From: a virus
Strand: one strand, 5' to 3'
DNA: 64,000 bases
Virus record (IMG/VR): IMGVR_UViG_3300037515_000591
Location: 1 to 64,000 of that record
The position numbers and the translations under genes are program-made. The notes beneath the pieces are model-generated. The model had not been told where the DNA came from, searched no databases, and saw only the letters and a list, made by a program, of their open reading frames with translations. Positions 6,399-36,372 of the stretch are shown here, one piece after another; the first letter of the stretch is position 1, and every line of letters begins with the position of its first letter.

Positions 6399-6399
6399 G

Positions 6400-16700: not shown

Positions 16701-17482
16701 CAGGCCACTCCCATCATGGGTGCGGTGTAGCCGTACAGGGTGGTGACCTCGGCGGCCGACAGTGCCTTGCCGGTGATGAAGGGGAGCGCGATGCGGCCGT
16801 GGAACTCGGCCACTGGTGTGGCGGTGACGCCGGAGCAGCCGATAGTGAGTGGGGCGGCGGTGTTCTCCATCGCGACGTAGGAGCCGTCCTCGGTGGTGGT
16901 GCCGTCGTTCGCGAGGGCGCCGTCGACGTACAGGTTGACCACCGGGGCGGTCTCGGTTCCGTCGTACGTAGCGATGACGTGGACCCACTGGCCAATGGTG
17001 AGGGCGCTGTCCGAGACGGCGATCTCCGTAGCGGACGCGGATGCGTCATGCAGTTCCAGAGACAGCAGGCCGGAGCCATCGATGAAGAACCGCCACTCCT
17101 CCAGGTTTCCCGCGGAGTCGTACTTCCCCATGATTACGTTGGTGGCGATGGCGTTCGGGCGGATCCATGCCCCCACCGAGAACGGGGTGTCCACCGTGCC
17201 GTTACCGAAGGAGTAATTCGTCGAGTCGACCCCGGCCAGGTGCTGATTCCCGACCGGGTTGAAGTGGTACGAGTGCAGCCCGGACGGCAGCGCGATGGGC
17301 GCGAACTCGCTCTGCAAGGTCCGGGCGGCCGCCTCGTCCGACGACGTCAGATCACCGACGCTGATACCGGAGATCAGCGAGCCTTCCGCCTCCCAGAATG
17401 GCCACAGGCTGGGCGTCGTGGTACCGAGGGTCGTCATGATGTCGTTCAGACGGCCCTCAGTCCCACGCCGGTACACAGTCAT
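16700..17482 (-). CDS. LamG (laminin_G_3-like) domain protein, possible capsid/neck decoration
   Basis: FSVGAWIRP...WRFFIDGSG...WVHVIATYDG...LYVDG...FHGRIALPFITGKALSAAEVTTLY; start ATG 17482 (TGATG overlap). Confidence 0.65.
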   Translation of the reverse strand: MTVYRRGTEGRLNDIMTTLGTTTPSLWPFWEAEGSLISGISVGDLTSSDEAAARTLQSEFAPIALPSGLHSYHFNPVGNQHLAGVDSTNYSFGNGTVDTPFSVGAWIRPNAIATNVIMGKYDSAGNLEEWRFFIDGSGLLSLELHDASASATEIAVSDSALTIGQWVHVIATYDGTETAPVVNLYVDGALANDGTTTEDGSYVAMENTAAPLTIGCSGVTATPVAEFHGRIALPFITGKALSAAEVTTLYGYTAPMMGVA

Positions 17483-18465: not shown

Positions 18466-19965
18466 TCAGGCTCGGGCGGCCAACTGCACGAACGGCGAAA
18501 GCGGGTCGCTGTTGTTCTGTGGCGTGCACGGGGACTGGAGCCACGGCTGACCGTCGACGCGCTGGATGATGCGGTAGGCGGTCTGGTCGTTCTGGAACTT
18601 GAAGTGCGGCGACGACATCGCCGACATGACCTGCCGGTCGCCGATCAGGTAGAACCCGAAGTCCACAAACGAGATGTCGCCCTTGTCGCCGAGGACACCC
18701 GGTGCCTTCTCGGTGACGACGACGGGGCGGCCGAGGATCGTCATCGGCGGGCCCTGAACGCCGTTGTTCAGCCAGATCGCCGAGCCGCCCGTACCGACGG
18801 ACAGACTCATGGTGGCGAGCTCCGGGAACACGTCCGGGCTCACGACCCACACCGCGCGGTCCAGGCTGCCGGGGAGCATGCGGGCGTACATCTTCACCAG
18901 GTTTTCCCACACCACGGTGTCGGCTGCCTGCCCGGACTCCTTGGCGACCTCGACGATCGCCGTGTTGCCCGCCTCCAGCGCGCCCTGGGGTTCGCCGACA
19001 CCACTGCCCTTGAGGAACGCGATGTCCTCGTAGAAGTTGAGGGCCTCGGGGAAGATCTGGTCGAGGAACGCCTGGAACGAGATGGCGGAGTCGGAGATCA
19101 GTTCGTTGGGGACCTCGGTGTACGCGGTGAGCTTCTTCGCGTCGAGGACGATCCGGGAGAACGCGGCCTGCGACGCGGTGAGCGCTGCGCCCTCTTCGGT
19201 CCAGTAGCCGACGACTCCGCCGTACACCGAGCTGACGTTGCTGGTGGAATCAACTGCCGGGAACGGCACCCGGAGCGTCTCCATCGGGATGACGCGGGCC
19301 CGCTGCCGGACGACGGACTGCTCCAGCGCCACCGCGAGGAGTTCGCTACGGAGGACCTCGGGGATGAGGAACCCGCCCTCCGATGGCACCGTGCTGGAGA
19401 ACGCGTTGCGGACGCGGGTCAGCTTCGCCTGCATGTCCGCAGTCCGGTTCGCGTTGTGCCAGATCGTCTGGAAGTACTCCGCCGAGTTCTTGAACTCGCG
19501 GTCCAGGACCGCACCCATCGCCCGCGGGTTGTGAATGTGGTTCCGCGCACTGCCCGTCTGCACGACGGCCTTCGGGGTCAGGTCGATGCGGTCCACACCG
19601 TCGGGCTGGTTGTCGCGCAGCCAGTTCGCGAGGATCTGCTCCGTCTGCTCCTTGACCTGCGTCGCAATGCTGAGGTCGCGGGCGTGGGTGTTGCGGGCGT
19701 AGTTGGTGATGAACTCGCCGAAGGCTTCCGGCTGCGCGAAGACGCGCTGCATCTTCGCCGAGTCGGTCAGCATCTCCTCCAGCGCGGCCTGGTTGGTGGG
19801 GATGGTGAGACGGTCGGGGTCCACCCCTCCGGCCGGGGCCGGCGGTTCGGCGATCCGGTTGTACGCCTTGCCGATCTGGCGCGGGTCGAACCCGGCGCGG
19901 AGGATCATGCGGTGGCGCATGCCGGACACGGTGTCGGCGCGCCCCCGGGCGATTGTGGTGTTCAC
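18466..19965 (-). CDS. major capsid protein, HK97 fold with N-terminal delta domain
   Basis: 499 aa; GGFLIPEV, PFPAVD, YWTEEGA, KKLTAYTEVPNELI, SPHFKFQNDQTAYR motifs; GTG 19965 in GTGA overlap after GGGAGG. Confidence 0.9.
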   Translation of the reverse strand: MNTTIARGRADTVSGMRHRMILRAGFDPRQIGKAYNRIAEPPAPAGGVDPDRLTIPTNQAALEEMLTDSAKMQRVFAQPEAFGEFITNYARNTHARDLSIATQVKEQTEQILANWLRDNQPDGVDRIDLTPKAVVQTGSARNHIHNPRAMGAVLDREFKNSAEYFQTIWHNANRTADMQAKLTRVRNAFSSTVPSEGGFLIPEVLRSELLAVALEQSVVRQRARVIPMETLRVPFPAVDSTSNVSSVYGGVVGYWTEEGAALTASQAAFSRIVLDAKKLTAYTEVPNELISDSAISFQAFLDQIFPEALNFYEDIAFLKGSGVGEPQGALEAGNTAIVEVAKESGQAADTVVWENLVKMYARMLPGSLDRAVWVVSPDVFPELATMSLSVGTGGSAIWLNNGVQGPPMTILGRPVVVTEKAPGVLGDKGDISFVDFGFYLIGDRQVMSAMSSPHFKFQNDQTAYRIIQRVDGQPWLQSPCTPQNNSDPLSPFVQLAARA

Positions 19966-21698
19966 AGTTCTGCCTCCCAAAGGGCACGTCGTACTGCTGA
20001 TTGGTCGATCGTTTGGACCGGCTCGGGCGCGGCCGGCTGGGGCGCGGCGGGCTGGGGTGGGGCGGGTGCGTCGTTGGCGACACCGGTCATGACGGCGCGC
20101 AGGTAGTCGGCGACGACTTGCCCGGCGGGCGGCGGCGGTTCGGGCACGACGGCCGCAGCCGGGGTGGGCACGGCCGGGGTGGGGCGTGCGGTCTGCGGGG
20201 CGGCCGGAGCATCGTTGGCGACCCCGGCGAACAGGGACCGGAAGTAGCCGACCGCCACCGTCTGCGGATCCGCCTCAGGCACGACGTCTACAGGCGGCGG
20301 CACATACGGGACCGGGTCCTGCCGCGGGGCGGGTACGGCCGGTGCGTCACCCGCCACACCCGCCATGAGAGAGCGGAAGTAGCCGGCGGCCACGGTCTGC
20401 TCGTCGGGTTCGGGCACGACGTCCGTGGGCGGCGGCACGTACGGGGCGGCCTGGCGTACGGGCGTGGGCGCGGCGGGTGCATCACCTGCGACACCGGCCA
20501 TCAGCGACCGCAGGTGCTCGGGCTGGTAGCCGGGCATCGGGTCGAGCGCGGCGGTTGCGGCGGCACGGAACACGGACGGGTCGAACGCGGCTGCCGTGGG
20601 CGCGTCGCGGGCGCGGTCCTCGCTGCTGTCGCCGTCCGCAAGGTGGGCGCGCAGGTGAGCTTCCACCGCGGCGCGCTGCGCCTCGGGTACGTCGGACTGG
20701 GGGAGGCGTGCGAGCCCGTTGCGGCAGGCGGCCAAGTTGGCGGCGCCCGGGCTACCGTCGCCGTCGACCTCGTGGTGGGGGAACTTGCACGCGCTCTTGG
20801 GGAGTTCGCCGCTCTCGACCTGTTCGGGGTCGTACCAGCCGTACGCCTTCTTCGCGGTGGCGACGGTCATGGGGGCGGGGAGGCGGCGCTCATTCGGGCC
20901 CGCATCCCATGGGGAGTCGACGGTCGCGGTGTGGTGCGTCGGCGACGCAGTGTCGAGCGGTGGTGCGGGAGCGGTCTCGCGGCTGGTGTGCGCGTAGTTG
21001 TACACCGACAGGTCCCACGCGGCGGCGACCGCCCGGTCGTCGGGCATCTCTTCCATCTGCCGCTCAGGCTTCGCAACCTCGTCCGCGAGCCCGGCCTCAA
21101 CCGCCTCATCGGCGAAGAACCAGGTTTCGGCAGCCATGAGGCGGAGCCACTGCTTGACCGTGCCGCCTGCACGCTCGGCGTACACCCCGGCCAGGTTTTC
21201 GCTCTGCCGGTCGAGAAATTCGGCGTACTCGCGGAGTTCAGCCGCTTCGCCGCTGGCGACGCCCTGCGCCATGTGCAGCATCATCTGGCTGTGCGGGGCC
21301 ATGATGATCCGGTCTCCGGCCATGGCGATGACGGAGGCGATCGATGCGGCGAGGCTGTCGACCTGGACGATGACCTTGGCGCGGTGGGAGCGGAGTGCGT
21401 TATAGCAGGCCAGGCCGTCATAGACCTCTCCGCCAGGGCTGTTGACGTACAGCCTGATCTCCGGCGCATCGATGGCCTTGAGTTCCTCCACAAAGGAGGA
21501 GGCTGAAATTCCCCACGAGCCAATGTCGCCGTAGATGTACATCGAGGCGACGGGTGAGCCGCCTTCGTCGACGGTGTTGGTGATGCGGTACCAGCCCTCG
21601 ACGCCGTCGGGTCCGGGCAGTGCGGGGCGTGCGGCTCGGCTGCGTTCGGCAATCACTTCGGGGGCGGCGGTATTCCACGATCGCCGCGTGTGGCTCAT
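19962..21698 (-). CDS. ClpP-family (S14) prohead protease fused to scaffold-like repeat region
   Basis: YIYGDIGSWG...VNSPGGEVYDG...SLAASIASVIAMAGD...MMLHMAQG; start ATG 21698 after GGGGAGGG. Confidence 0.85.
   Translation of the reverse strand: MSHTRRSWNTAAPEVIAERSRAARPALPGPDGVEGWYRITNTVDEGGSPVASMYIYGDIGSWGISASSFVEELKAIDAPEIRLYVNSPGGEVYDGLACYNALRSHRAKVIVQVDSLAASIASVIAMAGDRIIMAPHSQMMLHMAQGVASGEAAELREYAEFLDRQSENLAGVYAERAGGTVKQWLRLMAAETWFFADEAVEAGLADEVAKPERQMEEMPDDRAVAAAWDLSVYNYAHTSRETAPAPPLDTASPTHHTATVDSPWDAGPNERRLPAPMTVATAKKAYGWYDPEQVESGELPKSACKFPHHEVDGDGSPGAANLAACRNGLARLPQSDVPEAQRAAVEAHLRAHLADGDSSEDRARDAPTAAAFDPSVFRAAATAALDPMPGYQPEHLRSLMAGVAGDAPAAPTPVRQAAPYVPPPTDVVPEPDEQTVAAGYFRSLMAGVAGDAPAVPAPRQDPVPYVPPPVDVVPEADPQTVAVGYFRSLFAGVANDAPAAPQTARPTPAVPTPAAAVVPEPPPPAGQVVADYLRAVMTGVANDAPAPPQPAAPQPAAPEPVQTIDQSAVRRALWEAEL
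19965..20516 (-). repeat. four tandem ~45-aa coding repeats at the C-terminus of the protease-scaffold
   Basis: units start HLRSLMAGVAGDAP / YFRSLMAGVAGDAP / YFRSLFAGVANDAP / YLRAVMTGVANDAP, each followed by a Pro-rich spacer. Confidence 0.8.
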
Positions 21699-21905
21699 TG
21701 GGTTTCGCCCTCCCCGGTGCGGGTTTTCGCATTGTCCAGGCAGGGTCATTGTGCACTATGCGTTGCGGCTTGTATGGCCTCTGACCTGCGATAACGCGGC
21801 TTTACCGTTTCCATATCGCGGGTGTCGCATTTCTTTAACAGTGGGTTTTCTTAATTCCCGTCAGCCGCGTGCATGTTTACGTGTATTCGCGTACCATTCC
21901 GGTGC

Positions 21906-22178
21906 ATGAAGGTAAACACTTCGCAGGGTGATGATGCTGCGCGGGTGGATGAGCTGGCCGCTCGTGTGCGTGCCGGGCAGCTTCCGCCGCCGGAGGAGCG
22001 GGCTCGGATACGGCAGTCGGCTCATGTGACGTTGGAGCACTTCGCACGGGTGCTGCGGGTCAGCGTGATGACGGTCAGCCGGTGGGAGCGCGGGGAGACG
22101 GAACCGGGGCTGGATCAGCGGGCGGCGTACGCGCGACTGCTGCGGGAAGTCGCCGCCGCCACGGAGGGGGAGGCCTGA
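21906..22178 (+). CDS. XRE-family HTH transcriptional regulator
   Basis: IRQSAHVTLEHFARVLRVSVMTVSRWERGETEP; start ATG 21906 or 21873 uncertain; heads the plus-strand island. Confidence 0.75.
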   Translation: MKVNTSQGDDAARVDELAARVRAGQLPPPEERARIRQSAHVTLEHFARVLRVSVMTVSRWERGETEPGLDQRAAYARLLREVAAATEGEA

Positions 22179-22180
22179 CT

Positions 22181-22588
22181 GTGGAGCCAAAATTCGTGAT
22201 GAAGCGAGCCTGCTTCTCGACAGAGCGCAGGGCTTTGGACAGCGGAAGGACCGTCCGAGACCGAAGTCTGGGAATGATCGCGATCTACACACCGGTCCGC
22301 GTCAAGCCCCGTTACTGGACCAGCGCAACACTCTCGGGCTCAGTCATCCACATCGCCACCGGTCGCGGCATCCTCACTCAAGGCACCGTGGCCACCCGAG
22401 GAATGATCACGGTGGAGCCCTACTGCAACGGGCATCTCGAATGGCCCCGCTCGCTCTCGTCTCCAGCGGACTTCCCCGAGAGACGCCTGTGCGGAATGTG
22501 CCTTGAGCGGGCGCACAACACTGCGCCTGGCAGCCTCACTCGGCCCGTTTCGCCACGGACGATCACCGTGCACGTCGTGACGACCTGA
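22181..22588 (+). CDS. hypothetical protein, lower-GC
   Basis: GTG 3 nt after XRE stop (alt ATG 22199); sampled 60-nt blocks 60-65% GC; no motif recognised. Confidence 0.5.
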   Translation: MEPKFVMKRACFSTERRALDSGRTVRDRSLGMIAIYTPVRVKPRYWTSATLSGSVIHIATGRGILTQGTVATRGMITVEPYCNGHLEWPRSLSSPADFPERRLCGMCLERAHNTAPGSLTRPVSPRTITVHVVTT

Positions 22589-22602
22589 CTGGAGCCCGCC
22601 CC

Positions 22603-22806
22603 GTGAGTGCCCCGTTGAACCTGACCGCCGAGCAACTCCGCACGATCGCCGCAGCCCTCGACGAACTCACCGAAATCACGAAGCTGCGCGAGGTGTCGTT
22701 CACGCCTTCCGGCTTCCTCGAAATCGGACTTGCCGACAACACGCTGAGCGTGACGCGGGACAGCGAGACCGGCGCGTACGTCATCGACGACCGCAACGGC
22801 GACTAA
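22603..22806 (+). CDS. hypothetical small acidic protein
   Basis: 67-aa track ORF. Confidence 0.45.
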   Translation: MSAPLNLTAEQLRTIAAALDELTEITKLREVSFTPSGFLEIGLADNTLSVTRDSETGAYVIDDRNGD

Positions 22807-22816
22807 GGAGAAACCC

Positions 22817-23122
22817 GTGAGCACCTGTCCCGCCGAACCCCCCGGCCCCCACGACTTCACCGTCGAAGCCTGCCCCCACTGCGACACCTTCCAGTGGCCC
22901 AGCCGCACAGACCAGCATGTCGCTACCGTCCACGCCGACCTGCCGCCCTGCACAGCCCGCCTCGACAACGAGTACGGCTCGTACACGTGCATCCTCCGCG
23001 CCGGGCACCGGATAGGACACGGCCAGTACGGCGACTACCACGTCAGCGTCATCGGGCCGAACGGGCGCACCGTGTGGAACGACACCGCCGACGGCGCCAC
23101 CCCGCACAAGGAGCAGTCGTGA
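22817..23122 (+). CDS. hypothetical Cys/His-rich protein
   Basis: 101 aa; CPHC...C...C..H..H pattern. Confidence 0.5.
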   Translation: MSTCPAEPPGPHDFTVEACPHCDTFQWPSRTDQHVATVHADLPPCTARLDNEYGSYTCILRAGHRIGHGQYGDYHVSVIGPNGRTVWNDTADGATPHKEQS

Positions 23123-23523
23123 GCAGCAACTACAGCGTCCTCTGCCTCTCCCACGACCCCGCCATCATCGTCCACGACCCCGGCTTCAACCGGCCCGAGC
23201 AGGCCGAAGCCGCCATCGCTGACGGCGTCACCGGGCACGAGAACTGCGACCTGATGATCGGCCGCTACTCGTACCCGCTCGTCGAACTCGGCTGCCCGCC
23301 CGCCCGTGATGGCCTCGGCCCTTCCTTCAGGAGGTGCTACCACGGAGAAACCGTGTGGGTGTGCAGGGAATGGCTATGGATCCTGGCCGCGGCCTACCAA
23401 TCGTCTGATCCGGACGTACGGGCGACTACGCAAGCAAACCGCAGCCCGCGGTGTCTGCCGTGGGAGCGGCTACGGCGGTTGCGGAACGAACTCGACTTCA
23501 CGATCAAGGAGGCCGCCCCGTGA
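23119..23523 (+). CDS. hypothetical protein
   Basis: GTG in GTGA overlap; LCLSHDP and TGHENC motifs (TGHENC recurs in ORF 25987-26307). Confidence 0.5.
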   Translation: MSSNYSVLCLSHDPAIIVHDPGFNRPEQAEAAIADGVTGHENCDLMIGRYSYPLVELGCPPARDGLGPSFRRCYHGETVWVCREWLWILAAAYQSSDPDVRATTQANRSPRCLPWERLRRLRNELDFTIKEAAP

Positions 23524-23915
23524 GCGCCGTCCACATCGTTGTCGTCGTCGTCGCGGTGGCTGTCATCGGCCTCTGTACGTGGGCTGCTCCCCGCCGCTAC
23601 CACCTCCAGCGGTCGAAGTCCCAGGACCATGCGCCCCGAGTGCTCACTATCCCTGAGCCGATCACGGAGGCCGAGTACGAGGCGATCAAGACGCGCTGGC
23701 TGGCCCTGTACGGCAGCAACACGAACGCGCACCTCGTGACGCCGCTCTGCACGGAGCACGACGTCAACGAGTGGGCGTGCGTCACCAACCCGCGCACCGG
23801 GCGTATGGAGCACTTCAAGCGGCCGTGGCCCGGTTGCCGAATCGACTTCACAGGAAGCTCGCGCAACGGCCTGGTGGACCCACTGCCTCACACCACCCCC
23901 GAGGAGACCCCGTGA
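23520..23915 (+). CDS. hypothetical N-terminally membrane-anchored protein
   Basis: GTGA overlap start; VHIVVVVVAVAVIGLC TM helix. Confidence 0.5.
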   Translation: MSAVHIVVVVVAVAVIGLCTWAAPRRYHLQRSKSQDHAPRVLTIPEPITEAEYEAIKTRWLALYGSNTNAHLVTPLCTEHDVNEWACVTNPRTGRMEHFKRPWPGCRIDFTGSSRNGLVDPLPHTTPEETP

Positions 23916-24157
23916 ACGTCTTCGAGACCGTCTACGTCATCGGCGCCGCGATCTCCGCAGTCATCCTCGCCATCGACATCACCATCGACGAGGCCGACTG
24001 GAGCAGGCGCATGGTCTCGTTCCCGGATCCTGGCGAGCCGCTTCGGATTGAAACCGAACACGTCGTCAGCGGCATCCTGATGGGGCTTGTGACTGCGTTC
24101 GTCTGGCCGGTTGGGGTTCCGGCGTACTTCCTCGCGTTCAGGACCCGGCGTGGGTGA
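23912..24157 (+). CDS. hypothetical two-TM membrane protein
   Basis: GTGA overlap start; VYVIGAAISAVILAI and ILMGLVTAFVWPVGVPAYFLAF. Confidence 0.5.
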   Translation: MNVFETVYVIGAAISAVILAIDITIDEADWSRRMVSFPDPGEPLRIETEHVVSGILMGLVTAFVWPVGVPAYFLAFRTRRG

Positions 24158-24341
24158 CCGTCTGCGTCCGGTGCGCCTGTTCGGCCGCGACTACTACTGG
24201 CACGCCGGGCCCGGCCATCCGCTGCAACTGCTGCCCGCCGTCCCGTGGCCCGAGCTGCCCAAGGTGCAGCCCGAGGATCTGTACTCGGAGTTGGTCCGCC
24301 TGTACGCCCGCCCACTCCCACAACCCGAGGAGATCCCTTGA
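24150..24341 (+). CDS. hypothetical small protein
   Basis: GTG 24150, 8-nt overlap with upstream gene; competing frame is Cys/Pro junk. Confidence 0.4.
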   Translation: MGDRLRPVRLFGRDYYWHAGPGHPLQLLPAVPWPELPKVQPEDLYSELVRLYARPLPQPEEIP

Positions 24342-24811
24342 CGGCTGACAGCCCGCGACGCGTGATCACGCTGAACTGTTTGACCTGCGGCGAGACCGGC
24401 ATCACCGTATGGGCCGCACACGCCAGCGCCTGCCCCGGCCCGTCCCACGGCGGCGGGCCAGCCGAGACCATCGAAGGCGTCCGTCACCTCGAAGCCCGCC
24501 TATGGGAGAACAACGACGCTCGGGAGATGCCCGTCTCCGCCGTGTGCCACTCGATCGCTAACGATCTGCGGGACGTCCTCGCAGACGACGATCACCGGCC
24601 TACCGCCCCCGACCTGACCACCGGCACCCGAGGTGAGTACAACGAGTGGGTCATCGAGACGAAGCTCGGGCGCAGGCTCGCTGTGTGTGTCGACCGCAGC
24701 CCGTATCGGGAGGACGCACGCCGGCGGTTGGAGGAGCTACGGGCCGAGCATCCGGGGATGGTGTTCCGAGTGGTCCGGGAGACGAGTACGCGTACTGAGG
24801 AGGATTGGTGA
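24338..24811 (+). CDS. hypothetical protein
   Basis: TTG in TTGA overlap (start uncertain); CLTCG...C motif. Confidence 0.45.
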   Translation: MTADSPRRVITLNCLTCGETGITVWAAHASACPGPSHGGGPAETIEGVRHLEARLWENNDAREMPVSAVCHSIANDLRDVLADDDHRPTAPDLTTGTRGEYNEWVIETKLGRRLAVCVDRSPYREDARRRLEELRAEHPGMVFRVVRETSTRTEEDW

Positions 24812-25425
24812 TGCCTGACCTGCATGGCTGGCTGAGTCAACAGATCGACGCGGTGGAAGCCGTAGCGCGGGCCGCAGCCTCCGACGGAACGCCCGACTGG
24901 TACACCAAGAACCATTTCGCTGTAGCCGACGGGGACGGCGATGCGGTCGCGTACAACGAGGGAAACCCCACCCCGGACCAGGCCCGACACATTGCCCTGC
25001 ACGACCCTGCGGGCGTGCTGCGCCGTTGTGCCGCTGACCGGAAGATTCTCGCCGAGCACCGGCCCCACGGCGGCAAGTGGGAGCCGTACGCCTGCGAGGG
25101 GTGCGGCATGGACGGCGGGGACTGCGCCGACTGGATGGTTGAGCACGTCAACGACTGCCCGACGCTGCTCGCGCTCGCGGAGGGGTACGGGCTCACCGGC
25201 GAGCAGCGCGCCGTACTGGACCGGCCCGAGCCTGAGCGGCCTGCACCGTCCGGGCCCAGCCTTCTCCCTGACGGGCTCGCCGAGGCCATGTTCGGCAACC
25301 TGTACGCCTTCGCACTCGGTGTACGGGAGGTTGAGCGGAGCCCGGAGGTGAAGGCGATGGAGATCCTGAACCCGGAGTTGAAGAAGATCCCCGGCTACCT
25401 GCCCACCACCGAGGAGCAGCAGTGA
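24811..25425 (+). CDS. DUF6221-like protein
   Basis: ATG 8 nt after GAGGAGG; HDPAGVLRRCAADRKILAEH motif recalled from the actinobacterial DUF6221 family (not searched). Confidence 0.55.
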   Translation: MPDLHGWLSQQIDAVEAVARAAASDGTPDWYTKNHFAVADGDGDAVAYNEGNPTPDQARHIALHDPAGVLRRCAADRKILAEHRPHGGKWEPYACEGCGMDGGDCADWMVEHVNDCPTLLALAEGYGLTGEQRAVLDRPEPERPAPSGPSLLPDGLAEAMFGNLYAFALGVREVERSPEVKAMEILNPELKKIPGYLPTTEEQQ

Positions 25426-25739
25426 GGCGCCTGATCAGCAACAAGACTCTGTGGCCTCTGCACGTCGCTCAGGGCCGCGCCGAGGAGATCTCCGCGTGGG
25501 TGGCTGCGAACGGCATCGAACCCGACGACGTGTCCACCAACCATGATCTGATCGTTGAGGACGTGGCAGGCGTTCTGTCGATCCGGTGCACGGTGTACCT
25601 GCGGACGCTGGACGGCTCCAAGTACGTGGATGGCGCGTTGGATGACGCGGCGGTGGCGGAACGGCGTGTGCCGCTGCTGGTGCTGCCGCCGGATTCCTGG
25701 CCGACGTGGGCGCTCGCCGACGAAAGGCCACAGCCGTGA
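25422..25739 (+). CDS. hypothetical protein
   Basis: 105-aa track ORF, GTGA-type coupling. Confidence 0.45.
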   Translation: MRRLISNKTLWPLHVAQGRAEEISAWVAANGIEPDDVSTNHDLIVEDVAGVLSIRCTVYLRTLDGSKYVDGALDDAAVAERRVPLLVLPPDSWPTWALADERPQP

Positions 25740-25990
25740 GGCCACTGCAATGCGTGATCGGCCGCCACGCATGGACCGGCTGGCGTAAGCACGAGAAGGG
25801 ATGCGGCGACCACGGCTGCGACCGCTACCTACGCCGCTGTACTCGGTGCCCGAGGTGGCAGCGCAAGTTCCCAGGAGGGCGACCGCGCGAGTTCGAGTGC
25901 CGCTGCCTCGCCTTCGCCTGCTGCTCGGACGAATGCCGCCAAGGCCGATGCCCATCCATCCCAGCCGAGCTCAGAGAGGACACCCGATGA
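25736..25990 (+). CDS. hypothetical Cys-rich protein
   Basis: GTG 25736 in GTGA overlap; 12 Cys in 84 aa. Confidence 0.45.
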   Translation: MRPLQCVIGRHAWTGWRKHEKGCGDHGCDRYLRRCTRCPRWQRKFPGGRPREFECRCLAFACCSDECRQGRCPSIPAELREDTR

Positions 25991-26307
25991 GCCAACCACT
26001 CGACGAACAGCAGATGCGAGATGCCTGGGACACGGCTGTACAGGACTGCCTGACCGGGCACGAGAACTGCTCGTACGGCGGCATGACCCCACAGACCGGC
26101 TACTGGCTCCAAGCCGAGGGCTGCCAACTCAACCACGGTGAGAGGTGCGTGTGGTGCGGCGGCGAGGCGGAGACGGGGTTCTCCAACTGGGCCGACGACG
26201 GGTTTTCGATCTACCGGGTTCCTGCGTGTGAGGGGTGCGCGCAGCAGTGGGTGCGGTTCGATGTTCGGTGGGTGCGGAGCATCGCGGACGAGGAGCCCAC
26301 CCCGTGA
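25987..26307 (+). CDS. hypothetical Cys-rich protein
   Basis: ATG 25987 in ATGA overlap; TGHENC, CVWCGG, CEGC motifs. Confidence 0.45.
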   Translation: MSQPLDEQQMRDAWDTAVQDCLTGHENCSYGGMTPQTGYWLQAEGCQLNHGERCVWCGGEAETGFSNWADDGFSIYRVPACEGCAQQWVRFDVRWVRSIADEEPTP

Positions 26308-26738
26308 GCAACTACGCGTACGCCAGCGTCCCAGGCAACGACTCTGCGATCGTCGGCCCCGAAACCGTCAACGGCACCGGACAGGTCTACCTCCACGCCG
26401 ACGACCTCTGCTTCCTCAGCAACGAGGAAGCCCGCGAACTCGGGCGCGCGCTGATCGAGGCCGCCGACTACGCGAAGGCCGTGCAGAACGAGAAGGAGAA
26501 CTGGCCGGGCGGCGGACCGCCCAAGTCTGTACTCGACGTCGCGTGGACCGATCCGCAGTGGCGTTCCGCTGGCCCGGACGGCGACCCCGACACCGCGTGC
26601 AGCGCCTCTCACCGCCCAGACCCCCGCAGCACCAGCCCCCGGAGCGTTGCCCGTTGCACGCGGGGCTGCGGCCACTGCGGGGCGCACGCCGGGGCCGACT
26701 TCGACGGAAGGTCGTACCAGTGGGAGGACACGCGATGA
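26304..26738 (+). CDS. hypothetical protein
   Basis: GTG 26304 in GTGA overlap; 144 aa. Confidence 0.45.
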   Translation: MSNYAYASVPGNDSAIVGPETVNGTGQVYLHADDLCFLSNEEARELGRALIEAADYAKAVQNEKENWPGGGPPKSVLDVAWTDPQWRSAGPDGDPDTACSASHRPDPRSTSPRSVARCTRGCGHCGAHAGADFDGRSYQWEDTR

Positions 26739-26854
26739 CCGTCACGCTGCGACTCGTCGTCGAGACGTGCTGCGCCTGCCCCAACCAGTGGGACGCCTGG
26801 ACCGTCGACGGCCAATACCTTGCATGTCAACTATGTTCGCGAATAATGTTGTGA
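26735..26854 (+). pseudogene. 5' fragment of a small CxxC gene, truncated at an AT-rich junction
   Basis: MTVTLRLVVETCCACPNQWDAWTVDGQYL, then an abrupt drop in GC at about 26820 and a stop after 10 more codons. Confidence 0.5.
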
Positions 26855-26866
26855 CACAATGGAACT

Positions 26867-27064
26867 GTGACCGACTACAGCCAGCGACTCAAGAGGGCCC
26901 GCGCCGCCTATGACAGAGCGCGCTCCGCCTTGTTTGCAGAGATCAAGGAAGCGCTCGAAGCCGAAGACGGACCAACCGTCTCCCAGATCGCACGCGACGC
27001 CGATTTCACCCGCGAGTACATCGCCAAGATTCGCGATGGCCAGGGACCGAAGGAGACGCGATGA
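26867..27064 (+). CDS. small HTH DNA-binding protein associated with HNH cassette
   Basis: 65 aa; coiled-coil N-terminus then TVSQIARDADFTREYIAKIRDG; paralog-like to ORFs 53123 and 34817. Confidence 0.55.
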   Translation: MTDYSQRLKRARAAYDRARSALFAEIKEALEAEDGPTVSQIARDADFTREYIAKIRDGQGPKETR

Positions 27065-27624
27065 GCGGACGTGTCTGCGCAGTAGACGCATGCGAAAGGC
27101 CGCGCCATCGCCGCGACTGGTGCGTTATGCACCACAGCCGCTGGAAGCGGACGGGGAACCCGCTTGGCGCGCGAACCAGCCCCGACGTGCGGTTCTGGGC
27201 GAAGGTCGACAAGCGCGGTCCGATGTCGGAGCACCGCCCGGACCTCGGTGCATGCTGGGTGTGGACTGGCGGCAAGGATCGCCTCGGGTATGGGCACTTT
27301 TGGCTGGACCGCAGCCACGTGCTCGCCCATCGGTTCGCATACGAACTGCTGGTGGGCCCAATCGCGGGGAGTCTAGAGATGGACCACTTGTGCCGGGTTA
27401 GGCACTGCGTTAACCCGCACCACCTCGAACAGGTAACTCACCGGGTGAACACTCTGCGCGGCACGTGCCCTTCAGCGCAGGCGGCACGGGTGACCCACTG
27501 CCCACAAGGGCACGCGTACAACGAGGAGAACACCCGCATCTATCAGGGGCGACGGTACTGCCGTGAGTGCAGCCGTGAAGCGAGCCGCCGCTACAAGGCC
27601 TCTAAGCGGGCGGAGCGGGAGTGA
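27061..27624 (+). CDS. HNH endonuclease
   Basis: CWVWTGGKDRLGYGHFW...AHRFAYELLVG...EMDHLCRVRHCVNPHHLEQVTHRVN plus CPQGH...CRECS zinc ribbon. Confidence 0.85.
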   Translation: MSGRVCAVDACERPRHRRDWCVMHHSRWKRTGNPLGARTSPDVRFWAKVDKRGPMSEHRPDLGACWVWTGGKDRLGYGHFWLDRSHVLAHRFAYELLVGPIAGSLEMDHLCRVRHCVNPHHLEQVTHRVNTLRGTCPSAQAARVTHCPQGHAYNEENTRIYQGRRYCRECSREASRRYKASKRAERE

Positions 27625-27689
27625 TCACGCTGACGGAGTTCCTACGCCGGACGGGCCTGCGACTCGCACCAGACGCGGTGGTGAGCTGA
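27621..27689 (+). pseudogene. possible 3' remnant of the split gene (22 codons)
   Basis: GTG in GTGA overlap with HNH stop; VITLTEFLRRTGLRLAPDAVVS; its TGA overlaps the next ATG (TGATG). Confidence 0.35.
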
Positions 27690-28027
27690 TGAGTACCGAG
27701 TGGATGACGCCCGAGCAGATCCGGCAACACCGCGCCGCCGAGATCATGGAAGGCCCGCTCGGCCAAGCCATCTACGACGTCATCATCTGGACACGGAAGC
27801 AATGGCCACCCATGCGGTCCGATGACGAACTGTGGCTCAACCCCACCGACCACGGCGCCACCGTGCTGATCGGCGGCCGGGTGCTCGGCTACGAAGTGTG
27901 CGCCTCCGAACAGGTGCCGCCCGGCAAGGCGCTGATCTACTGCAAGGCCCTCAGCGCGTACGTGGGCGACGGGCAGATGCCGGACGGCCGGTACATGCTG
28001 GTGCGACTCCCGGAGATCACGCTGTGA
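27689..28027 (+). CDS. hypothetical protein
   Basis: ATG 27689; 112 aa. Confidence 0.5.
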   Translation: MSTEWMTPEQIRQHRAAEIMEGPLGQAIYDVIIWTRKQWPPMRSDDELWLNPTDHGATVLIGGRVLGYEVCASEQVPPGKALIYCKALSAYVGDGQMPDGRYMLVRLPEITL

Positions 28028-28326
28028 GCGACCGCATTCCACTCGACCCCGACCAGGCCATCGCCTTCGACAAGGCGACAGAGAACCGCCGCGAATACAT
28101 CCGAGCGGAAAGACTCGACCAGCTGGCCGACGGTGGCGAGTCCGTGCACTACCCGGGCTGCCCTGAATGCGGCGTGCCGGCGAAACACGTCGTGTGGTCC
28201 ACGTACGACCAGGGTCCGGGCGGTGTGCTGGAGATCGATTTGGGTACGTGCGGGCATCGGTTCACCGTGAGCCCGGTACCAGCACGCTTCGACCCAGACG
28301 GCTTCTGGTGGCACTCGGAAGACTGA
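28024..28326 (+). CDS. hypothetical zinc-ribbon-like protein
   Basis: GTG in GTGA overlap; CPECG...CGH; last gene of the island, ends 9 nt from the portal stop. Confidence 0.5.
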   Translation: MSDRIPLDPDQAIAFDKATENRREYIRAERLDQLADGGESVHYPGCPECGVPAKHVVWSTYDQGPGGVLEIDLGTCGHRFTVSPVPARFDPDGFWWHSED

Positions 28327-28335
28327 CGACCGCGC

Positions 28336-30390
28336 TCACTCCCAGCGGGCCACGAACGTGCCCCTGCACCGCACGCCGCCCTCGCACCGCAGATAGCCGC
28401 CCGCACCATACGCAGCCCGCACCGCGTCCAAGTCGTCGAACTCCGTGCCGTCGATCTCAGAGCACGGGTCACACACCCGGCTGTCGTTCTTCTCGCTCGC
28501 GAAATACCGGGCAGTCGGCGCAGCGGCCAACGTCGCCACCCGGCCCGCGTTCTGCGCCCGATGCAACGCACCCCCAAGCTGGTCACGCCGGAACCAATTC
28601 TTCAACCCCTTCAGGAACCGGGTGACCTTGCCCGCCACACCCTCACCGTCCGCACCCGGCGTCAGCAGACGCAACGCCTCACGCCCCGCAGACCCGGCAA
28701 GATCAGCAGCCAGCAGAGCAGCCGTCGCCGCGGCGATCTCCACCAACTCCGACCCGAACGCGTTCGTCAACGACCGGCTCAAACGCGGCGGCTTCACCTT
28801 CACACCCTGCTCGGCAGCCTCCGCCACCATCTGCGCGGCAGCAGCCTTCGCCATGTCGGCGAGCGCACCCCGCAGCACCTTCGCCGCCACATCCGAGTCC
28901 ACACTCAGATCAGCGAGCGCCTCAGTATCACCCGCATCCACCGCGGTCTCGATCTGCGCGGCGAGCGCCTCAACCTGCGCCTCCGCGACCGGCTCCCACG
29001 CCTCCAACAGCCCAGCCAGCGCCTCCTCGAACTGGACCCGCACCCGCTCCAACGCATCGTCATCAGCCTGCGCACGCACCCGACCGTGCTCCAACACCCG
29101 GTTGTACGACGGCTGCCCGGCAGGCAACGCGAACGGCACATGGTGATGCAAGTCCAGACGGGCCGCCGGCGCGGGCACAACCGGAGCCTGCTGAGGCGCC
29201 CGAGCAGGGGCCGGCGCCCGGTACCCCAGATCCGGCAAGCCCAAATACTCCGACGCCAACCGAGGATCCGCGCCCCCATCCACCAGCGTCTTCCACGCCA
29301 CCGTCTTCGACTCCGCCTCCTTCACCTCCAACTCCCGGTCCGTCGGAGTCGGATCCACAAAGTCGAACTCCAGGGCACGCGCCGCATCCTTGCCGTACAG
29401 CGGTAGCAACTGGTGGTTCAGCGCGCCGCGGATCGCCCGCAGATCCGGGACGACCAGCCAGCGGGAGAACATGACATCGGCGGCTTCCATGTTGGCGCGG
29501 TTCGCGTCATCAACTGTGCCGAGCATCGGCTTGGGGAAGCCGAGCCCTTCGCGGATGACCTCGCGGGACGCCGCGTTCGACTCGACGAACTGCATGTCGC
29601 GCTGCGTGTACTTGCGGTCCTTCCACACCCCGTGCTCCAGGAACGCGACACGGTGGGCGTTGGCAACACCCTTGTGCTGCTCGTCCCAGCGGGCCTGCAA
29701 CTGGTCCCACTCGGGGTCGGAGAGGACGGAGGGGAGTTCGATGATCCCGCCCGGCTCCGCGCTGTTCATGAAGAAGTTCCGCTGCCATTCGGCCGCGAAC
29801 TTGTTCGAGTCGATCTCGGCGAGCAGCGGCTGAATCGGCGAGATCCCCCGGTACGGATCCCTCGGGTGCGGCGTACGAATGAAGATCACGTCTTCCAGAC
29901 GCAACGCCACCTCCTCACCCCCCGGCCCCGTGTACATGTACCCCGACAGGAACTTCGTGGGATGCGGCACCGGCTGGATACGGTCCGGGCGCACATTCCA
30001 CATCTCCAGCGGCATCGTCGACCGGGCGCTATTCCGGGCGATCACCCACCACGTCTCCCCCGTCAAACCCTTGTGCTGCTGCCCCGCTTCCACGAAAATC
30101 TCGCGGGTGAAGAACGGGTTCGGCTTATTCCACAGGTCGAGCGCGGGATGAACCGCAACTTCCTGCCGGTCCTCCTTCAGCCCAGACTTGGCCTTGCGGT
30201 ACAGATGCCACTCCACCCCGGCCACAGCCTTCGACCAGCGGCTGACGATCGCATGGACGGTGCCCACCGTCTCCATCGCCCGCATCTGCGCCTCAGCACC
30301 GCTGGGTGCCCGCCACGGAATCGACAGCCCGCCACGGGCCGACACGTACGGCACCGGCGTCTTATTCCTCAGGGCACGTAGAGACCTCAC
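28336..30390 (-). CDS. portal protein (HK97 family) fused to MuF-like minor capsid domain
   Basis: HPALDLWNKPNPFF, GETWWV, FIRTPHPRDPYRGISP, FFMNSAEPGG portal motifs; C-terminal FASEKNDSRVCDPCSEIDGTEF MuF-like; GTG 30390 in GTGA overlap after GGAGAAGGGG. Confidence 0.85.
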   Translation of the reverse strand: MRSLRALRNKTPVPYVSARGGLSIPWRAPSGAEAQMRAMETVGTVHAIVSRWSKAVAGVEWHLYRKAKSGLKEDRQEVAVHPALDLWNKPNPFFTREIFVEAGQQHKGLTGETWWVIARNSARSTMPLEMWNVRPDRIQPVPHPTKFLSGYMYTGPGGEEVALRLEDVIFIRTPHPRDPYRGISPIQPLLAEIDSNKFAAEWQRNFFMNSAEPGGIIELPSVLSDPEWDQLQARWDEQHKGVANAHRVAFLEHGVWKDRKYTQRDMQFVESNAASREVIREGLGFPKPMLGTVDDANRANMEAADVMFSRWLVVPDLRAIRGALNHQLLPLYGKDAARALEFDFVDPTPTDRELEVKEAESKTVAWKTLVDGGADPRLASEYLGLPDLGYRAPAPARAPQQAPVVPAPAARLDLHHHVPFALPAGQPSYNRVLEHGRVRAQADDDALERVRVQFEEALAGLLEAWEPVAEAQVEALAAQIETAVDAGDTEALADLSVDSDVAAKVLRGALADMAKAAAAQMVAEAAEQGVKVKPPRLSRSLTNAFGSELVEIAAATAALLAADLAGSAGREALRLLTPGADGEGVAGKVTRFLKGLKNWFRRDQLGGALHRAQNAGRVATLAAAPTARYFASEKNDSRVCDPCSEIDGTEFDDLDAVRAAYGAGGYLRCEGGVRCRGTFVARWE

Positions 30391-30762: not shown

Positions 30763-31398
30763 GTGAATCCACCAGTTCAGGTTGTGTACAAGGGCGTTAC
30801 GTACAAGCGGAATCCCAACAGCGATGACTGGCCCAAGCGCGTGTATTACCAGGCGCCTCGCGGCAGCGGACGCGGATACCTGCACCGCGACGTCTTCACC
30901 GACGCCAATGGTCCGATCCCGGACGGCATGCACGTCCATCACCGAGACCACGACCCGTTCAACAACGACCCGTCGAATCTGACGCTCCTCACCCCGAAGC
31001 AGCACCGCCAAGAGCACAGCAAGAAGTTCGACGAAGCACGCATGAAGATCTTCAGGGAGACCACTCTCGCAGCTGCGGCGAAATGGCATGGAAGCGAAGA
31101 AGGCCGCGCTTGGCATCGGGAGCACGGCCGCAAGACCTGGGAGGGGCGCGAGACGAGCACCTTCACATGCCCTGAGTGTGGGGAGGAACACCAGGGGCAC
31201 TTCCTGGCGCGCACCGGCCCTGAACGGTACTGCTCAGGGCGTTGCAGGCAGCGAGCGGAATGGCGAACGAAGAAGTACTGGGAAGATGCCACCTGCCCCA
31301 TGTGCTCGGCAGCGTTCAAGCGACAGCGGGGACGTAGTGAGACTTGCTCGCGCAGTTGCGGGGCAAAGCTCAATTGGCAGCGGCGTGCGTCCTCATAG
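30763..31398 (+). CDS. HNH endonuclease, antisense to late operon
   Basis: GMHVHHRDHDPFNNDPSNLTLLTPKQHRQEH; C-terminal CPECG/CSGRC/CPMC/CSRSC zinc fingers; sampled GC about 57%. Confidence 0.8.
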   Translation: MNPPVQVVYKGVTYKRNPNSDDWPKRVYYQAPRGSGRGYLHRDVFTDANGPIPDGMHVHHRDHDPFNNDPSNLTLLTPKQHRQEHSKKFDEARMKIFRETTLAAAAKWHGSEEGRAWHREHGRKTWEGRETSTFTCPECGEEHQGHFLARTGPERYCSGRCRQRAEWRTKKYWEDATCPMCSAAFKRQRGRSETCSRSCGAKLNWQRRASS

Positions 31399-32838
31399 CC
31401 AACGGACCCTGGTCCGGGGACCGACAAAATAGGCCAAAAGCAACGCATCTGCGTTATCCGGGCTTCGGCCGATTCGCTTCTTCGTCTCATCCTTCGGCTC
31501 CACCACCGTCCGCCCCGCGCTGTCCGTCGTGTACTTCGGCGCCGTCAACTGCGACACCAACCGCTCCCGATCCTTCTCCTCCAGCCCCGACATGTCCCAC
31601 GCCAGATCCTCCGACAACTGCCGGCCCACCTCCCACCACAACTGCGACCGCAGATTCTTGAACCGGCCCGGATTCGACGACGCCTCCGACACGTTCACCC
31701 CCACCACCTGTGCCCGGTGCAAGCTCTGCGACTGCTTCTCCCGCAGTGAGCCGACCACGCCCCACCCGATCCCGATCGCATCCACCTTCACGATCGCGGC
31801 CTGCGACTGGTTGATCGCCTCCACGATCCGGGCCACAGACCTCACCGGATCCCGCTCACGGAACCGCCACTCCCGGCCCACCACCACACCACGCCGCTCA
31901 CGAATCACCGTCTCGTCACCGCCAGCACCCATATCGATCCCGAGCTCCACCGGCGTGAGCTGACCTGGCGGCCACGGGATATCGCGCGGCCGGCAGCAGG
32001 CACGGACTTTCGACAGGCGCACCACCCCGTCCTCCGCGTCCGACGGGAAATCCCCGAGGACCTTGCTGATGTAGGTGGGCGACTCCTCCCCGTACTCCAG
32101 CCGCATCTCCTCGACGTAAGCGTGGGAGACGAGCATCTCCCGCAGCTCGTCCGGGACTTCCTCGCCCGTGAAGTTGGGGGTGTCGAACGCCGAGATCTTG
32201 ATGGTGTTCCAGCGTCCACTCCCGCAGACGCGAGCGAACTCAGTCCCCGGGTCGTCCGGATTGCCGACAGCGAGAATGCGGCAGTGCTCGCCCGTGGCGA
32301 TCGCGCGCGCAGCGGTCCAGAACTGCTTGTTCACGCCGCACGCTTCATCCAAGATCACAAGCACGTACTTCGCGTGGATGCCCTGGAAGGCATGCGGGTT
32401 GTAGTCGGACGGTTTGCGGCCGAAAGCGATCAGCCGCTTCCCCAGCTTCCAGTCCGTCTCATTGATCCGCCCCAGAAACGGACGGCCCCGCGCCTCGGCC
32501 TTCGTGAACGCCCCGTTGATCTCAGACCACAGGATCGCCTTCACCTGATCCCCGGTCGGCGCAGTCGTCACCACCCGCGCCTCACCCGGCGGATGAATGT
32601 CCAGCCACCACGCCACCAACTGCGCAGCCAAGAAGCTCTTGCCGACACCGTGGCAGGACTGCACGGCCGTCTGCCGGTGGTCGCGCACCGACTCCGCAAT
32701 CTGGATCTGCTTCGACCACAGATGCGTGCCCAGCTTCTCCCGCGCCCACAAGCCCGGGTCGTCGACGTACTGCTCCGCGACAGCAGCCTCATCCGCCTGA
32801 TCCTCCAGGCGACCTGCGGCAAGCGTGATCGCGTCCAC
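31393..32838 (-). CDS. terminase large subunit
   Basis: HGVGKSFLAA Walker A-like, VLVILDEACGV Walker B; nuclease half with IDMGAGGDETV; 481 aa. Confidence 0.9.
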   Translation of the reverse strand: MDAITLAAGRLEDQADEAAVAEQYVDDPGLWAREKLGTHLWSKQIQIAESVRDHRQTAVQSCHGVGKSFLAAQLVAWWLDIHPPGEARVVTTAPTGDQVKAILWSEINGAFTKAEARGRPFLGRINETDWKLGKRLIAFGRKPSDYNPHAFQGIHAKYVLVILDEACGVNKQFWTAARAIATGEHCRILAVGNPDDPGTEFARVCGSGRWNTIKISAFDTPNFTGEEVPDELREMLVSHAYVEEMRLEYGEESPTYISKVLGDFPSDAEDGVVRLSKVRACCRPRDIPWPPGQLTPVELGIDMGAGGDETVIRERRGVVVGREWRFRERDPVRSVARIVEAINQSQAAIVKVDAIGIGWGVVGSLREKQSQSLHRAQVVGVNVSEASSNPGRFKNLRSQLWWEVGRQLSEDLAWDMSGLEEKDRERLVSQLTAPKYTTDSAGRTVVEPKDETKKRIGRSPDNADALLLAYFVGPRTRVRWL

Positions 32839-34769: not shown

Positions 34770-34816
34770 TACGGTTGGCAATGGCATACGCGTAGGCCAT
34801 GTGCAACCATGACCGC

Positions 34817-36119: not shown

Positions 36120-36138
36120 GCAGCGAGGAGACGAGCAC

Positions 36139-36372
36139 GTGAGCAACGAACCCCGCAGGCCGTCTCCACCGGTGGCCGAGGAGATCCCCAATGTTCTGCC
36201 CGACGTCTCGTTGACCGTGGTCAACACCGAGTTCGGGCAGATCGCCGTGTCCGATCATCTGGTGCGGATCTGGAACCGGTACGGGTGGCCGGAGGACTCG
36301 GTACTCAAGCAGATGGCCGACGTGCAACCGCCGGACGGGTGGCCGGTGAGCGGCGAGGAGACCACCCCATGA
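36139..36372 (+). CDS. hypothetical protein
   Basis: GTG 36139 after GAGGAG. Confidence 0.45.
   Translation: MSNEPRRPSPPVAEEIPNVLPDVSLTVVNTEFGQIAVSDHLVRIWNRYGWPEDSVLKQMADVQPPDGWPVSGEETTP

Follow-up and report, generated by a model that had tools for sequence, protein, structure and literature searches.

A conserved reverse-strand operon headed by an XRE-family gene lies between the portal and prohead protease genes in a lineage of Streptomyces prophages

The order of portal, protease, and capsid genes is among the most conserved features of HK97-like phages. This order is interrupted in the virus record IMGVR_UViG_3300037515_000591 (IMG/VR), of which positions 1 to 64,000 were analyzed (the window, 64 kb in length), and the locus raises the question of what a 6.5-kb block of opposite-strand genes does between the portal and the prohead protease and how the late genes beyond it are transcribed. 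The window is high-GC, Streptomyces-type phage DNA with nearly all genes on the minus strand, namely an early region (~64-37 kb), small genes, the large terminase gene (TerL), the portal gene, and then protease, capsid, and tail genes. TerL, portal, a ClpP-type protease, and an HK97-fold major capsid protein (MCP), all recognized by Pfam or PHROG profiles, follow each other in the order of an HK97-like head module on one strand. The interruption consists of 19 plus-strand genes (21906-28326; hereafter the island, cf. Table 1), which were delimited using a frame plot of GC content at third codon positions (GC3), an analysis of start codons and ribosome-binding sites (RBS), and a codon-usage gene caller. 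A split of portal from protease had already been described from the DNA letters alone (the sequence-only reading), with about 18 small plus-strand genes and two gene fragments in between; the flanking genes and the many small genes were confirmed, while no fragments were identified as such. Our preferred interpretation, to which we assign a probability of roughly 0.55, is that the island is a lineage-conserved, XRE-controlled annex of early-type accessory genes and that its control region also restarts the late operon.

Scans with the portal yielded 39 related portal-bearing loci from Streptomyces genomes and IMG/VR, which were mapped by tblastn (L numbers below), and the joint between portal and protease was found in three states. 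The genes are separate and contiguous (adjacent state) in Streptomyces phage Dagobah, L025, L033, L035, L038, and L040; the portal open reading frame (ORF) lacks a stop codon and continues in frame into the protease (fused state) in L005, L008/L031, L009, L019, L020, L021, L023, L024, and L032, with L007 being of the fused type with a frameshift; and the joint is filled by opposite-strand genes over 2-6 kb, or over 991 bp in the mini-version of L026-28 (island state), in 19 loci of the first set and in L041, L043, L044, L045, and L051. The premise of the sequence-only reading, that portal and protease are normally contiguous, was therefore upheld by synteny with Dagobah and many closer relatives. 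The opposite-strand block itself recurs: at least 25 related Streptomyces loci, from prophages or viral records and including complete chromosomes, carry one at this joint. Among its cultured hosts are Streptomyces sp. AMCC400023 (CP024989.1), S. bottropensis (JBIURY010000004.1), and several NPDC strains. An XRE gene stands at the protease-proximal end in 14 of the 15 loci in which that end is covered (11 aligned loci, two found by the DNA signature described below, and two annotated genomes), L016 being the only one without a hit, and the conserved control signature was present in all 13 loci checked. A metagenome scan with the XRE gave 600 pattern hits, none of them confirmed; megablast of the 20-32 kb segment against 50,697 phage records gave no match, and exact-protein look-ups of the window portal, g10, and P0121 returned no record.

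The island occupies exactly the joint that is fused in sister phages. L005 (5211-8705) and L020 (8378-11860) encode single portal-ClpP protease-scaffold ORFs of 1,164 and 1,160 amino acids (aa), and in a database search about 30 protein clusters combined PF04860 with PF00574 at a length of 1,100-1,300 aa; the NCBI pipeline annotates such proteins in several Streptomyces species, and some of the clusters also carry an intein. The linker between the fused parts comprises 7-8 codons, TT(T)EEAS (...AVWDTTEEAS-MGRTRR..., ACG ACG GAG GAG GCC TCG ATG), and since it still encodes a GGAGGAGG Shine-Dalgarno sequence ahead of the protease Met, it is a former spacer that lost its stop codon. An intein-like insertion (CLAPEV...VLVHNC; PF14890), ~450 aa long as judged by eye from the translation, is present in L008 at ~5510-6860 and identically in L031 (proteins P0258 and P0259, 1,665-1,672 aa), where it interrupts the C-terminal Cys motif of the portal part. 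In the portal tree, island loci fall into at least three clades, the fused clade is nested among them, and adjacent-type outgroups lie outside. The TerL and portal trees disagree; recombination is therefore pervasive, too much so for these trees to order the state changes.

The second line of evidence comes from the DNA between the divergent protease and XRE genes, which measures 174 nt up to ATG 21873 and 207 nt up to 21906 and has a GC content of 55% against 67% in the island and flanks; the lower GC content had been noted in the sequence-only reading, with a length of about 150 bp. We consider 21906 to be the more likely XRE start, because codons 21873-21905 show no synonymous variation and are non-preferred ones, i.e., they are constrained as DNA rather than as codons. 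At the other side, the protease start proposed earlier, ATG 21698, is supported by a GGGGAGGG RBS and by a Met homologous to that of the relatives; a longer ORF from ATG 21749 was rejected, as this ATG is out of frame (frame-breaking indels) or absent in 4 of 11 related loci. The region is 173-174 nt long in 9 of these 11 loci and retains several invariant blocks despite portals that are merely 58-86% identical. A promoter-like site facing the island (-35 CTGACC / -10 TAnnnT) is conserved in position in 8 of the 11. The signature TCATTGTGCACTA-N15-40-CTGACCTG matched eight viral contigs, six of them island loci that were already known and two of them new, and both new contigs were confirmed to match at the protease|XRE boundary. 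The near-palindrome is unchanged even where the XRE protein is only 47% identical (L022 and L039), whereas the short repeats vary along with XRE; we therefore assign the repeats to XRE, while the palindrome is, on this pattern of conservation, probably read by a conserved factor and is possibly part of a late promoter. The control-region motifs have no second copy elsewhere in the window, and a general late promoter reused across it was rejected on that ground. A conserved RNA structure was rejected as well (RNAalifold -8.9 kcal/mol, covariation term ~0).

The island is a translationally coupled operon of 19 genes headed by an XRE-family gene. Overlaps of 4-8 nt, typically ATGA or GTGA, occur at 12 of its 18 junctions (13 when one 1-nt overlap is counted), 98% of the stretch is coding, and the median protein has 105 aa. 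Its genes are under purifying selection (ratio of nonsynonymous to synonymous substitution rates, dN/dS, 0.1-0.6) and are therefore real, with values of 0.3-0.6 for the backbone genes within 22603..24811 and 0.27-0.51 for g11-g14, which have sporadic orthologues and no functional Pfam or PHROG match. The XRE head, the DUF6221-like protein, and the HNH gene named in the sequence-only reading all scored above Pfam thresholds, and its two membrane proteins correspond to g06 and g07, in which hydrophobic N-terminal or internal segments resembling transmembrane (TM) helices can be seen in the sequence; the profile searches added a small helix-turn-helix (HTH) gene, g16, whereas structure searches with models of g05 and g10 found nothing. 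The XRE protein has no peptidase or sensor domain, and neither it nor the HNH protein matched a PDB sequence in phmmer searches. DUF6221 shows invariant Cys/His columns across 48 homologues, and copies of g15 about 70% identical occur in at least six loci. As for g02, the codon-usage caller missed it and its homologue was found in no related locus. The HNH_3 gene g17 (E 1e-9, 38.1 bits against a cutoff of 24.8; phrog_826 E 5e-51) and g16 form a pair that is present in none of the related islands, and g18 directly follows g15 in L006; judged by its domains and by its presence and absence, the pair behaves as an inserted mobile cassette of the homing-endonuclease type, with a predicted cleavage activity. 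The g18 ORF has a long 5' extension that is unlikely to be translated. Control through bldA was rejected, as a TTA codon occurs in none of the island genes, and no paralogue of these genes was found elsewhere in the window.

Table 1 Window coordinates of the island, its control region, and the flanking head genes
Feature	Position	Strand	Evidence or remark
MCP, HK97 fold	18466..19965 (ORF to 19980)	-	Pfam Phage_capsid (PF05065) E 1e-49
Prohead protease, ClpP-type, 578 aa	19962..21698	-	CLP_protease (PF00574) E 3e-30; phrog_2976 head maturation protease E 8e-80
Control region	21699-21905		divergent
14-bp near-palindrome CATTGTGCACTATG	21747-21760		51 nt upstream of protease ATG
Block CTGACCTG	21781-21788		holds the -35; 16-nt spacing, then TAnnnT
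Candidate island promoter	-35 CTGACC 21781-21786; -10 TACCGT 21803-21808		sigma70-like; 16 nt in between; faces island
Repeat GATAACGCGG	21790-21799		straddles the -10 together with ATATCGCGGG
Repeat ATATCGCGGG	21813-21822		straddles the -10 together with GATAACGCGG
Element CATTTCTTTAAC	21828-21839		control-region element
Repeat TATTCGCGTA	21884-21893		looser third copy just before XRE start
g01, XRE-family HTH regulator, 90 aa	21906..22178	+	HTH_3 E 3e-7, 30.8 bits vs cutoff 23; alternative ATG 21873
g02, 135-aa ORF, coding status uncertain	22181..22588	+	good RBS; GC3 only 0.76
g03	22603-22806	+	backbone gene
g04	22817-23122	+	backbone gene
g05	23119-23523	+	backbone gene
g06, N-terminal TM	23520-23915	+	backbone gene
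g07, membrane protein	23912-24157	+	window-only; listed among backbone block 22603..24811
g08	24150-24341	+	backbone gene
g09, N-terminal zinc ribbon	24338-24811	+	backbone gene
g10, DUF6221 (PF19730)	24811..25425	+	Pfam E 3e-15, 57.3 bits vs cutoff 27.6
g11; g12; g13; g14	25422-25739; 25736-25990; 25987-26307; 26304-26738	+	variable cargo, several Cys-rich; frame plot, start analysis
g15, 39-aa Cys-rich mini-protein	26735..26854	+	phrog_16837 E 7e-5
g16 (small HTH, phrog_686) and g17 (HNH_3 endonuclease, 187 aa)	26867..27624	+	window-specific cassette
g18, 112 aa	27689..28027	+	112-aa orthologues in L006, L029, L039; dN/dS ~0.2
g19, 100 aa, zinc-ribbon-like, last island gene	28024..28326	+	87-90% identical portal-adjoining orthologues in L002, L010, L012
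Tail-to-tail spacer of g19 and portal stops, 9 nt, CGACCGCGC	28327..28335		no terminator hairpin
Portal	28336..30354	-	Pfam Phage_portal (PF04860) E 8e-55; phrog_2662 portal
TerL	31393..32838	-	phrog_2 terminase large subunit, E 9e-34

Comparison of the islands revealed a constant frame around an exchangeable content. The 153 proteins encoded in the gaps of 20 island-bearing loci (window included) and five shorter-gap loci (L026-28, L035, and L038) fell into 54 families, 30 of them singletons, with about 97% on the strand opposite to the portal. A collinear backbone (XRE ... g03, g04, g05, g06, g08, g09, DUF6221 ... portal) runs through the loci with indels everywhere around it; the families of g10 (F0) and g09 are the most widespread, with 14 loci each, and g02, g07, g16, and g17 are unique to the window. 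Relative to L010, the flanks are 86-98% identical (TerL 93%, portal 86%, XRE 98%, MCP 95%), whereas fewer than half of the island genes are shared and those only at 55-69% identity; relative to L011, identity jumps along the island (98/90/68/80/76/93/61%). To judge from these alignments, the island cargo turns over rapidly through recombination. L041, a 5.7-kb metagenome contig (1-5675), has a g05 99% and a g10 86% identical to those of the window; the seven genes that precede its g05 are different ones, as is the membrane protein that follows, which shows that cargo turns over even between near-identical backbones. RBS and stop/start junction sequences recur within the island, e.g., GGAGCCCGCCCCGTGAG three times, and could serve as microhomology for cassette exchange; near-identical 17-18-nt junction repeats lie at 22591-22607, 23508-23524, and 26292-26308, at 25977-25993, 26725-26741, and 27051-27067, and at 23898-23915 and 24324-24341.

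As to what the genes are, most island proteins are ORFans. For g05, 167 homologues were found, all labelled hypothetical and nearly all from Streptomyces or soil metagenomes, and for g10, 357, mostly from Streptomyces; neither gene was detected by tblastn in the 50,697 phage records. The fused-type prophage of Streptomyces sp. YIM S03343, on whose chromosome L042 and L052 overlap, carries a g05 homologue (60% identity) in a same-strand early region, ~14.6 kb upstream of the portal, where its neighbours are IstB-like, Phage_zn_bind_8, and DUF6011 genes and an adjoining DUF6221 gene. By this context, the early-gene pool of the phage group includes at least two of the core island genes. Among the cargo of sister islands are a Dam-type N6-adenine methylase (L011, 16221-16640; PF05869, E 1e-13), a Thg1-like 3'-5' polymerase (L043, 11052-11834) that overlaps the portal 3' end by 20 nt, three lipobox lipoprotein families adjoining the portal (L026, 6284-6718; L039, 12245-12556; L022, 12346-12768), and several membrane proteins. 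Such a mix fits counter-restriction, nucleic-acid repair or mobility, and exclusion, which are the usual business of early or accessory phage genes.

At the portal end, the island and the late genes converge over a gap of 9 nt, exactly as the sequence-only reading had stated. A spacing of 0-13 nt between the last island stop and the portal stop was seen in 15 loci, regardless of which of 11 gene families closes the island. A consensus scan of 21400-28700 returned no promoter and no terminator on either strand (2.9 terminators expected). Folding of the junction gave no more structure than in shuffled sequence, and in fact less (z +2.1 and +1.6). With terminator-less convergence at 9 nt, a collision of island and late transcription is inevitable unless the two take place at different times, and since the former runs into portal and TerL, we infer that they do. 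The L029/L030/L039/L026-28 clade has a GC-rich inverted repeat of 42-52 nt between the two stops and still keeps the control-region blocks; this hairpin would block read-through, so that at least there the protease, capsid, and tail genes need a start of their own.

These observations led us to propose the following course of events. The island would be transcribed from the conserved -35 CTGACC / -10 TAnnnT site, with XRE regulating its own synthesis through the short repeats straddling this promoter. Island genes would serve host takeover, counter-defence, and exclusion, at an early stage of infection and possibly in the lysogen as well. As the late operon is divided by the island, the control region probably also supplies a restart for transcription of protease, capsid, and tail genes, for which the invariant palindrome is the best candidate element; the need for either such a restart promoter or read-through in antisense had been recognized in the sequence-only reading.

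Several findings weigh against this interpretation. A sigma70-like promoter on the protease strand is absent from all 11 loci, which makes 6.5 kb of antisense read-through from the terminase-portal transcript possible in the window, and both promoters as well as the time of island expression (early lytic or lysogenic) are predictions. The short repeats are only modestly above chance, as two of the seven WTWWCGCG sites in the window lie 22 bp apart. The early-region location of core homologues comes from one well-resolved prophage, with weaker hints in L025 and L040. An AlphaFold2 model of g05 (predicted local distance difference test, pLDDT, 83.6) has no neighbour at E<0.001 in PDB or BFVD, a weaker model of g10 (pLDDT 69) has no match in PDB, and PADLOC recognized no known defence system among the ten island proteins tested; roles of the window cargo genes in counter-defence or exclusion are likewise predictions.

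The closest competitor, which we regard as unlikely though deserving serious attention, is that the island is a prophage-expressed moron or lysogenic-conversion island, switched on in the lysogen, where it would mainly protect the host through superinfection exclusion or defence, while its transcription into the antisense strand of portal and TerL would do no harm or would even help to silence late genes. The loci are indeed prophages in Streptomyces chromosomes, and the island is extra DNA between genes that are adjacent or fused in L001, L005, L009, L019-L021, L023-L025, L032, L033, and L040, oriented opposite to the lytic operons, with a regulator and a candidate promoter of its own. The window island encodes membrane proteins (g06 and g07), the cargo next to the portal in L022, L029, L030, and L039 consists of lipobox lipoproteins, and in the 991-bp mini-islands of L026-28 a lipoprotein gene is the sole opposite-strand gene and is followed by a hairpin, a classic moron layout. 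However, a moron is expected to differ in nucleotide composition and to bring its own terminator: the island has 66.7% GC, against 67.0% in the late genes to its left and 66.0% from portal to TerL, its GC3 of 0.72-0.90 is the same as elsewhere in the phage, and the promoter-like site is accompanied by no terminator in the window, a GC hairpin spacer occurring only in L026-30 and L039. None of the ten proteins tested had a PADLOC hit; a coupled 19-gene operon which, here or in sister islands, includes a Dam methylase, an HNH endonuclease, or a Thg1-like enzyme resembles a lytic early set; and a sister prophage has core homologues in its early region. An accessory island in a hotspot, as the sequence-only reading had called it, is thus borne out as regards a fixed joint with conserved flanks, variable cargo, an own regulator, and a candidate promoter; it is not sporadic, being lineage-wide, and its label as moron fits less well than that of a relocated early-type accessory operon. 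That reading was to be abandoned if related phages routinely carried the same block with known core functions; the lineage-wide recurrence comes close to this condition, except that no known core function is involved and that the cargo mostly differs between loci. Pfam searches with ten cargo proteins of other islands recovered the Dam methylase only and no recognizable defence system.

A bolder variant, quite doubtful in our estimation, would make the control region and XRE a checkpoint that uncouples transcription of terminase and portal from that of protease, capsid, and tail. Convergent, terminator-less transcription into portal and TerL would then act as an antisense brake on the packaging genes until XRE shuts the island off, and over evolutionary time the lineage would toggle between the split, regulated state and a single portal-protease-scaffold polyprotein; if so, gain or loss of an accessory operon would rewire head-assembly stoichiometry and late-gene control.

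Still less credence is given to the island as an immunity or lysis-lysogeny module with g01 as the main, CI-like repressor or as Cro. An XRE-family HTH gene does head the operon beside a conserved AT-richer region with a palindrome and repeats, and neither another CI-type repressor nor an integrase was recognized in the 64-kb window; the window is, however, part of a genome, and a canonical immunity region may lie outside it. Moreover, the gene divergent from XRE encodes the prohead protease rather than a partner regulator as in a CI/Cro pair, the XRE protein lacks a peptidase or sensor domain, and the fused- and adjacent-type relatives, prophages too, have no XRE hit within 10 kb of the portal. 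Finally, a recent one-off acquisition of foreign mobile DNA (transposon, satellite, or homing-endonuclease cassette) or an assembly or inversion artefact, which the HNH_3 endonuclease and the abrupt strand switch might suggest, is very improbable, given the same architecture in at least 25 independent assemblies including complete chromosomes, a GC content equal to that of the flanks, the failure to find flanking direct or inverted repeats of the island or, by domain searches, an integrase or transposase among its genes (an invertible segment or transposon was rejected for want of terminal repeats), and the restriction of the HNH and HTH pair to the window, where it accounts for just ~0.8 kb.

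The flanking genes have peculiarities of their own. The portal ORF is open up to 30645 (769 codons), and its likely start, ~30285-30354, was deduced from homologues: relatives align from about residue 84-90, and the annotated call P0331 has 649 aa. The translation of the first ~95 codons, rich in Arg and Cys, can nevertheless be aligned with that of several island-type relatives, with matches beginning at residue 8. The portal has a long C-terminal extension with a terminal Cys motif, ...CEGGVRCRGTFVARWE, before the stop codon, and ends with ...ARWE in the window. The protease begins with MSHTRRSWNT..., and its C-terminal half (~19962-20750, minus strand) consists of about four Pro/Ala-rich repeats (...YFRSLMAGVAGDAPA...) that make the 20-21 kb bin the GC-richest of the window (75%); this part is probably a fused, scaffold-like domain, and protease length varies widely among relatives (426-595 aa). 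A Laminin_G_3 (concanavalin-A-like) domain protein (16700-17476, minus strand) between the capsid gene and the connector and tail genes is possibly a head decoration or carbohydrate-binding virion protein. A second opposite-strand block (34799-37033, plus strand), just upstream of the packaging genes, comprises six coupled small genes without Pfam hits; similarly placed blocks occur in L043 (18292-19291), L044 (18672-19494), and L052 (4192-5345, with an HTH gene at its head). The early region also holds a WhiB-like factor, a T5orf172/MUG113 protein with an FtsK-gamma domain, an RNase_T-type exonuclease, and a weak RecT-like protein (listed for 56352-57038, 37639-38709, and 59612-62083), and an Amidase_2 endolysin lies at the far left (578-1543). 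Rfam (at gathering thresholds) and ARAGORN gave no match over the whole window.

The case shows that a whole Streptomyces prophage clade tolerates and keeps a regulated reverse-strand operon within its head cluster, at the very point where sister phages have the two genes fused. The DNA signature and the XRE head make the hotspot easy to recognize, and it offers a source of hundreds of uncharacterized early or accessory Streptomyces phage genes, including two widespread families without a recognized fold. The adjacent, fused, and split states form a natural series for questions on late transcription and portal:protease stoichiometry, and the split state is a test case for convergent, terminator-less transcription within a late operon; since complete cultured hosts carry the element, these questions are directly testable in Streptomyces lysogens.

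Among known systems, Dagobah (MT711977) is the nearest isolated phage, with homologous TerL, portal (45% identity), ClpP, and HK97 MCP (54% identity); unlike the window, it has contiguous portal (445 aa) and ClpP (262 aa) genes, no island, no long portal C-terminal extension, and no protease repeat tail. The fused Streptomyces prophage proteins annotated by PGAP as 'head maturation protease, ClpP-related' (P0245, P0247, and P0260, among others) belong to the same portal (60-66% identity) and protease (72-76% identity) families and have the same joint, bridged by an in-frame linker, whereas the window has a stop codon at this joint, together with reverse genes over 6.5 kb and the 207-bp control region. 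The morons of lambdoid and HK97-like phages (Juhala, Hendrix and colleagues) are reportedly extra genes that separate two late genes adjoining each other in relatives; many of them are read from the other strand, and they have expression signals of their own and accessory roles. The island resembles them in position and orientation; it differs in its size (6.5 kb and 19 genes rather than one or two), phage-like composition, lack of a terminator, dedicated XRE gene, and clade-wide control region, as well as in being retained vertically with internal turnover rather than inserted sporadically. The defence hotspots of P2 and P4 and the central prophage-mediated defence loci of cluster N mycobacteriophages combine a constant position and conserved flanks with a rapidly exchanged cargo of small genes, as the island does, which in contrast sits inside the head-assembly cluster, has no known defence system among the ten proteins tested, and carries cargo resembling early genes. 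The early or non-structural arms of actinobacteriophages, which run leftward and opposite to the structural arm, are made up of numerous short, translationally coupled ORFs without a known function; gene size, coupling, Zn-ribbon-rich ORFans, and Dam/HNH/HTH content are shared with the island, which is nevertheless a miniature within the structural operon of a phage whose main early region is on the same strand as its late genes. The literature library searched for portal-protease fusions, opposite-strand insertions in head modules, and DUF6221 contained no precedent. Compared with known morons and plasticity hotspots, the island is unusual in its position, its dedicated and conserved control region, its terminator-less convergence with the portal, and its relation to portal-protease fusion.

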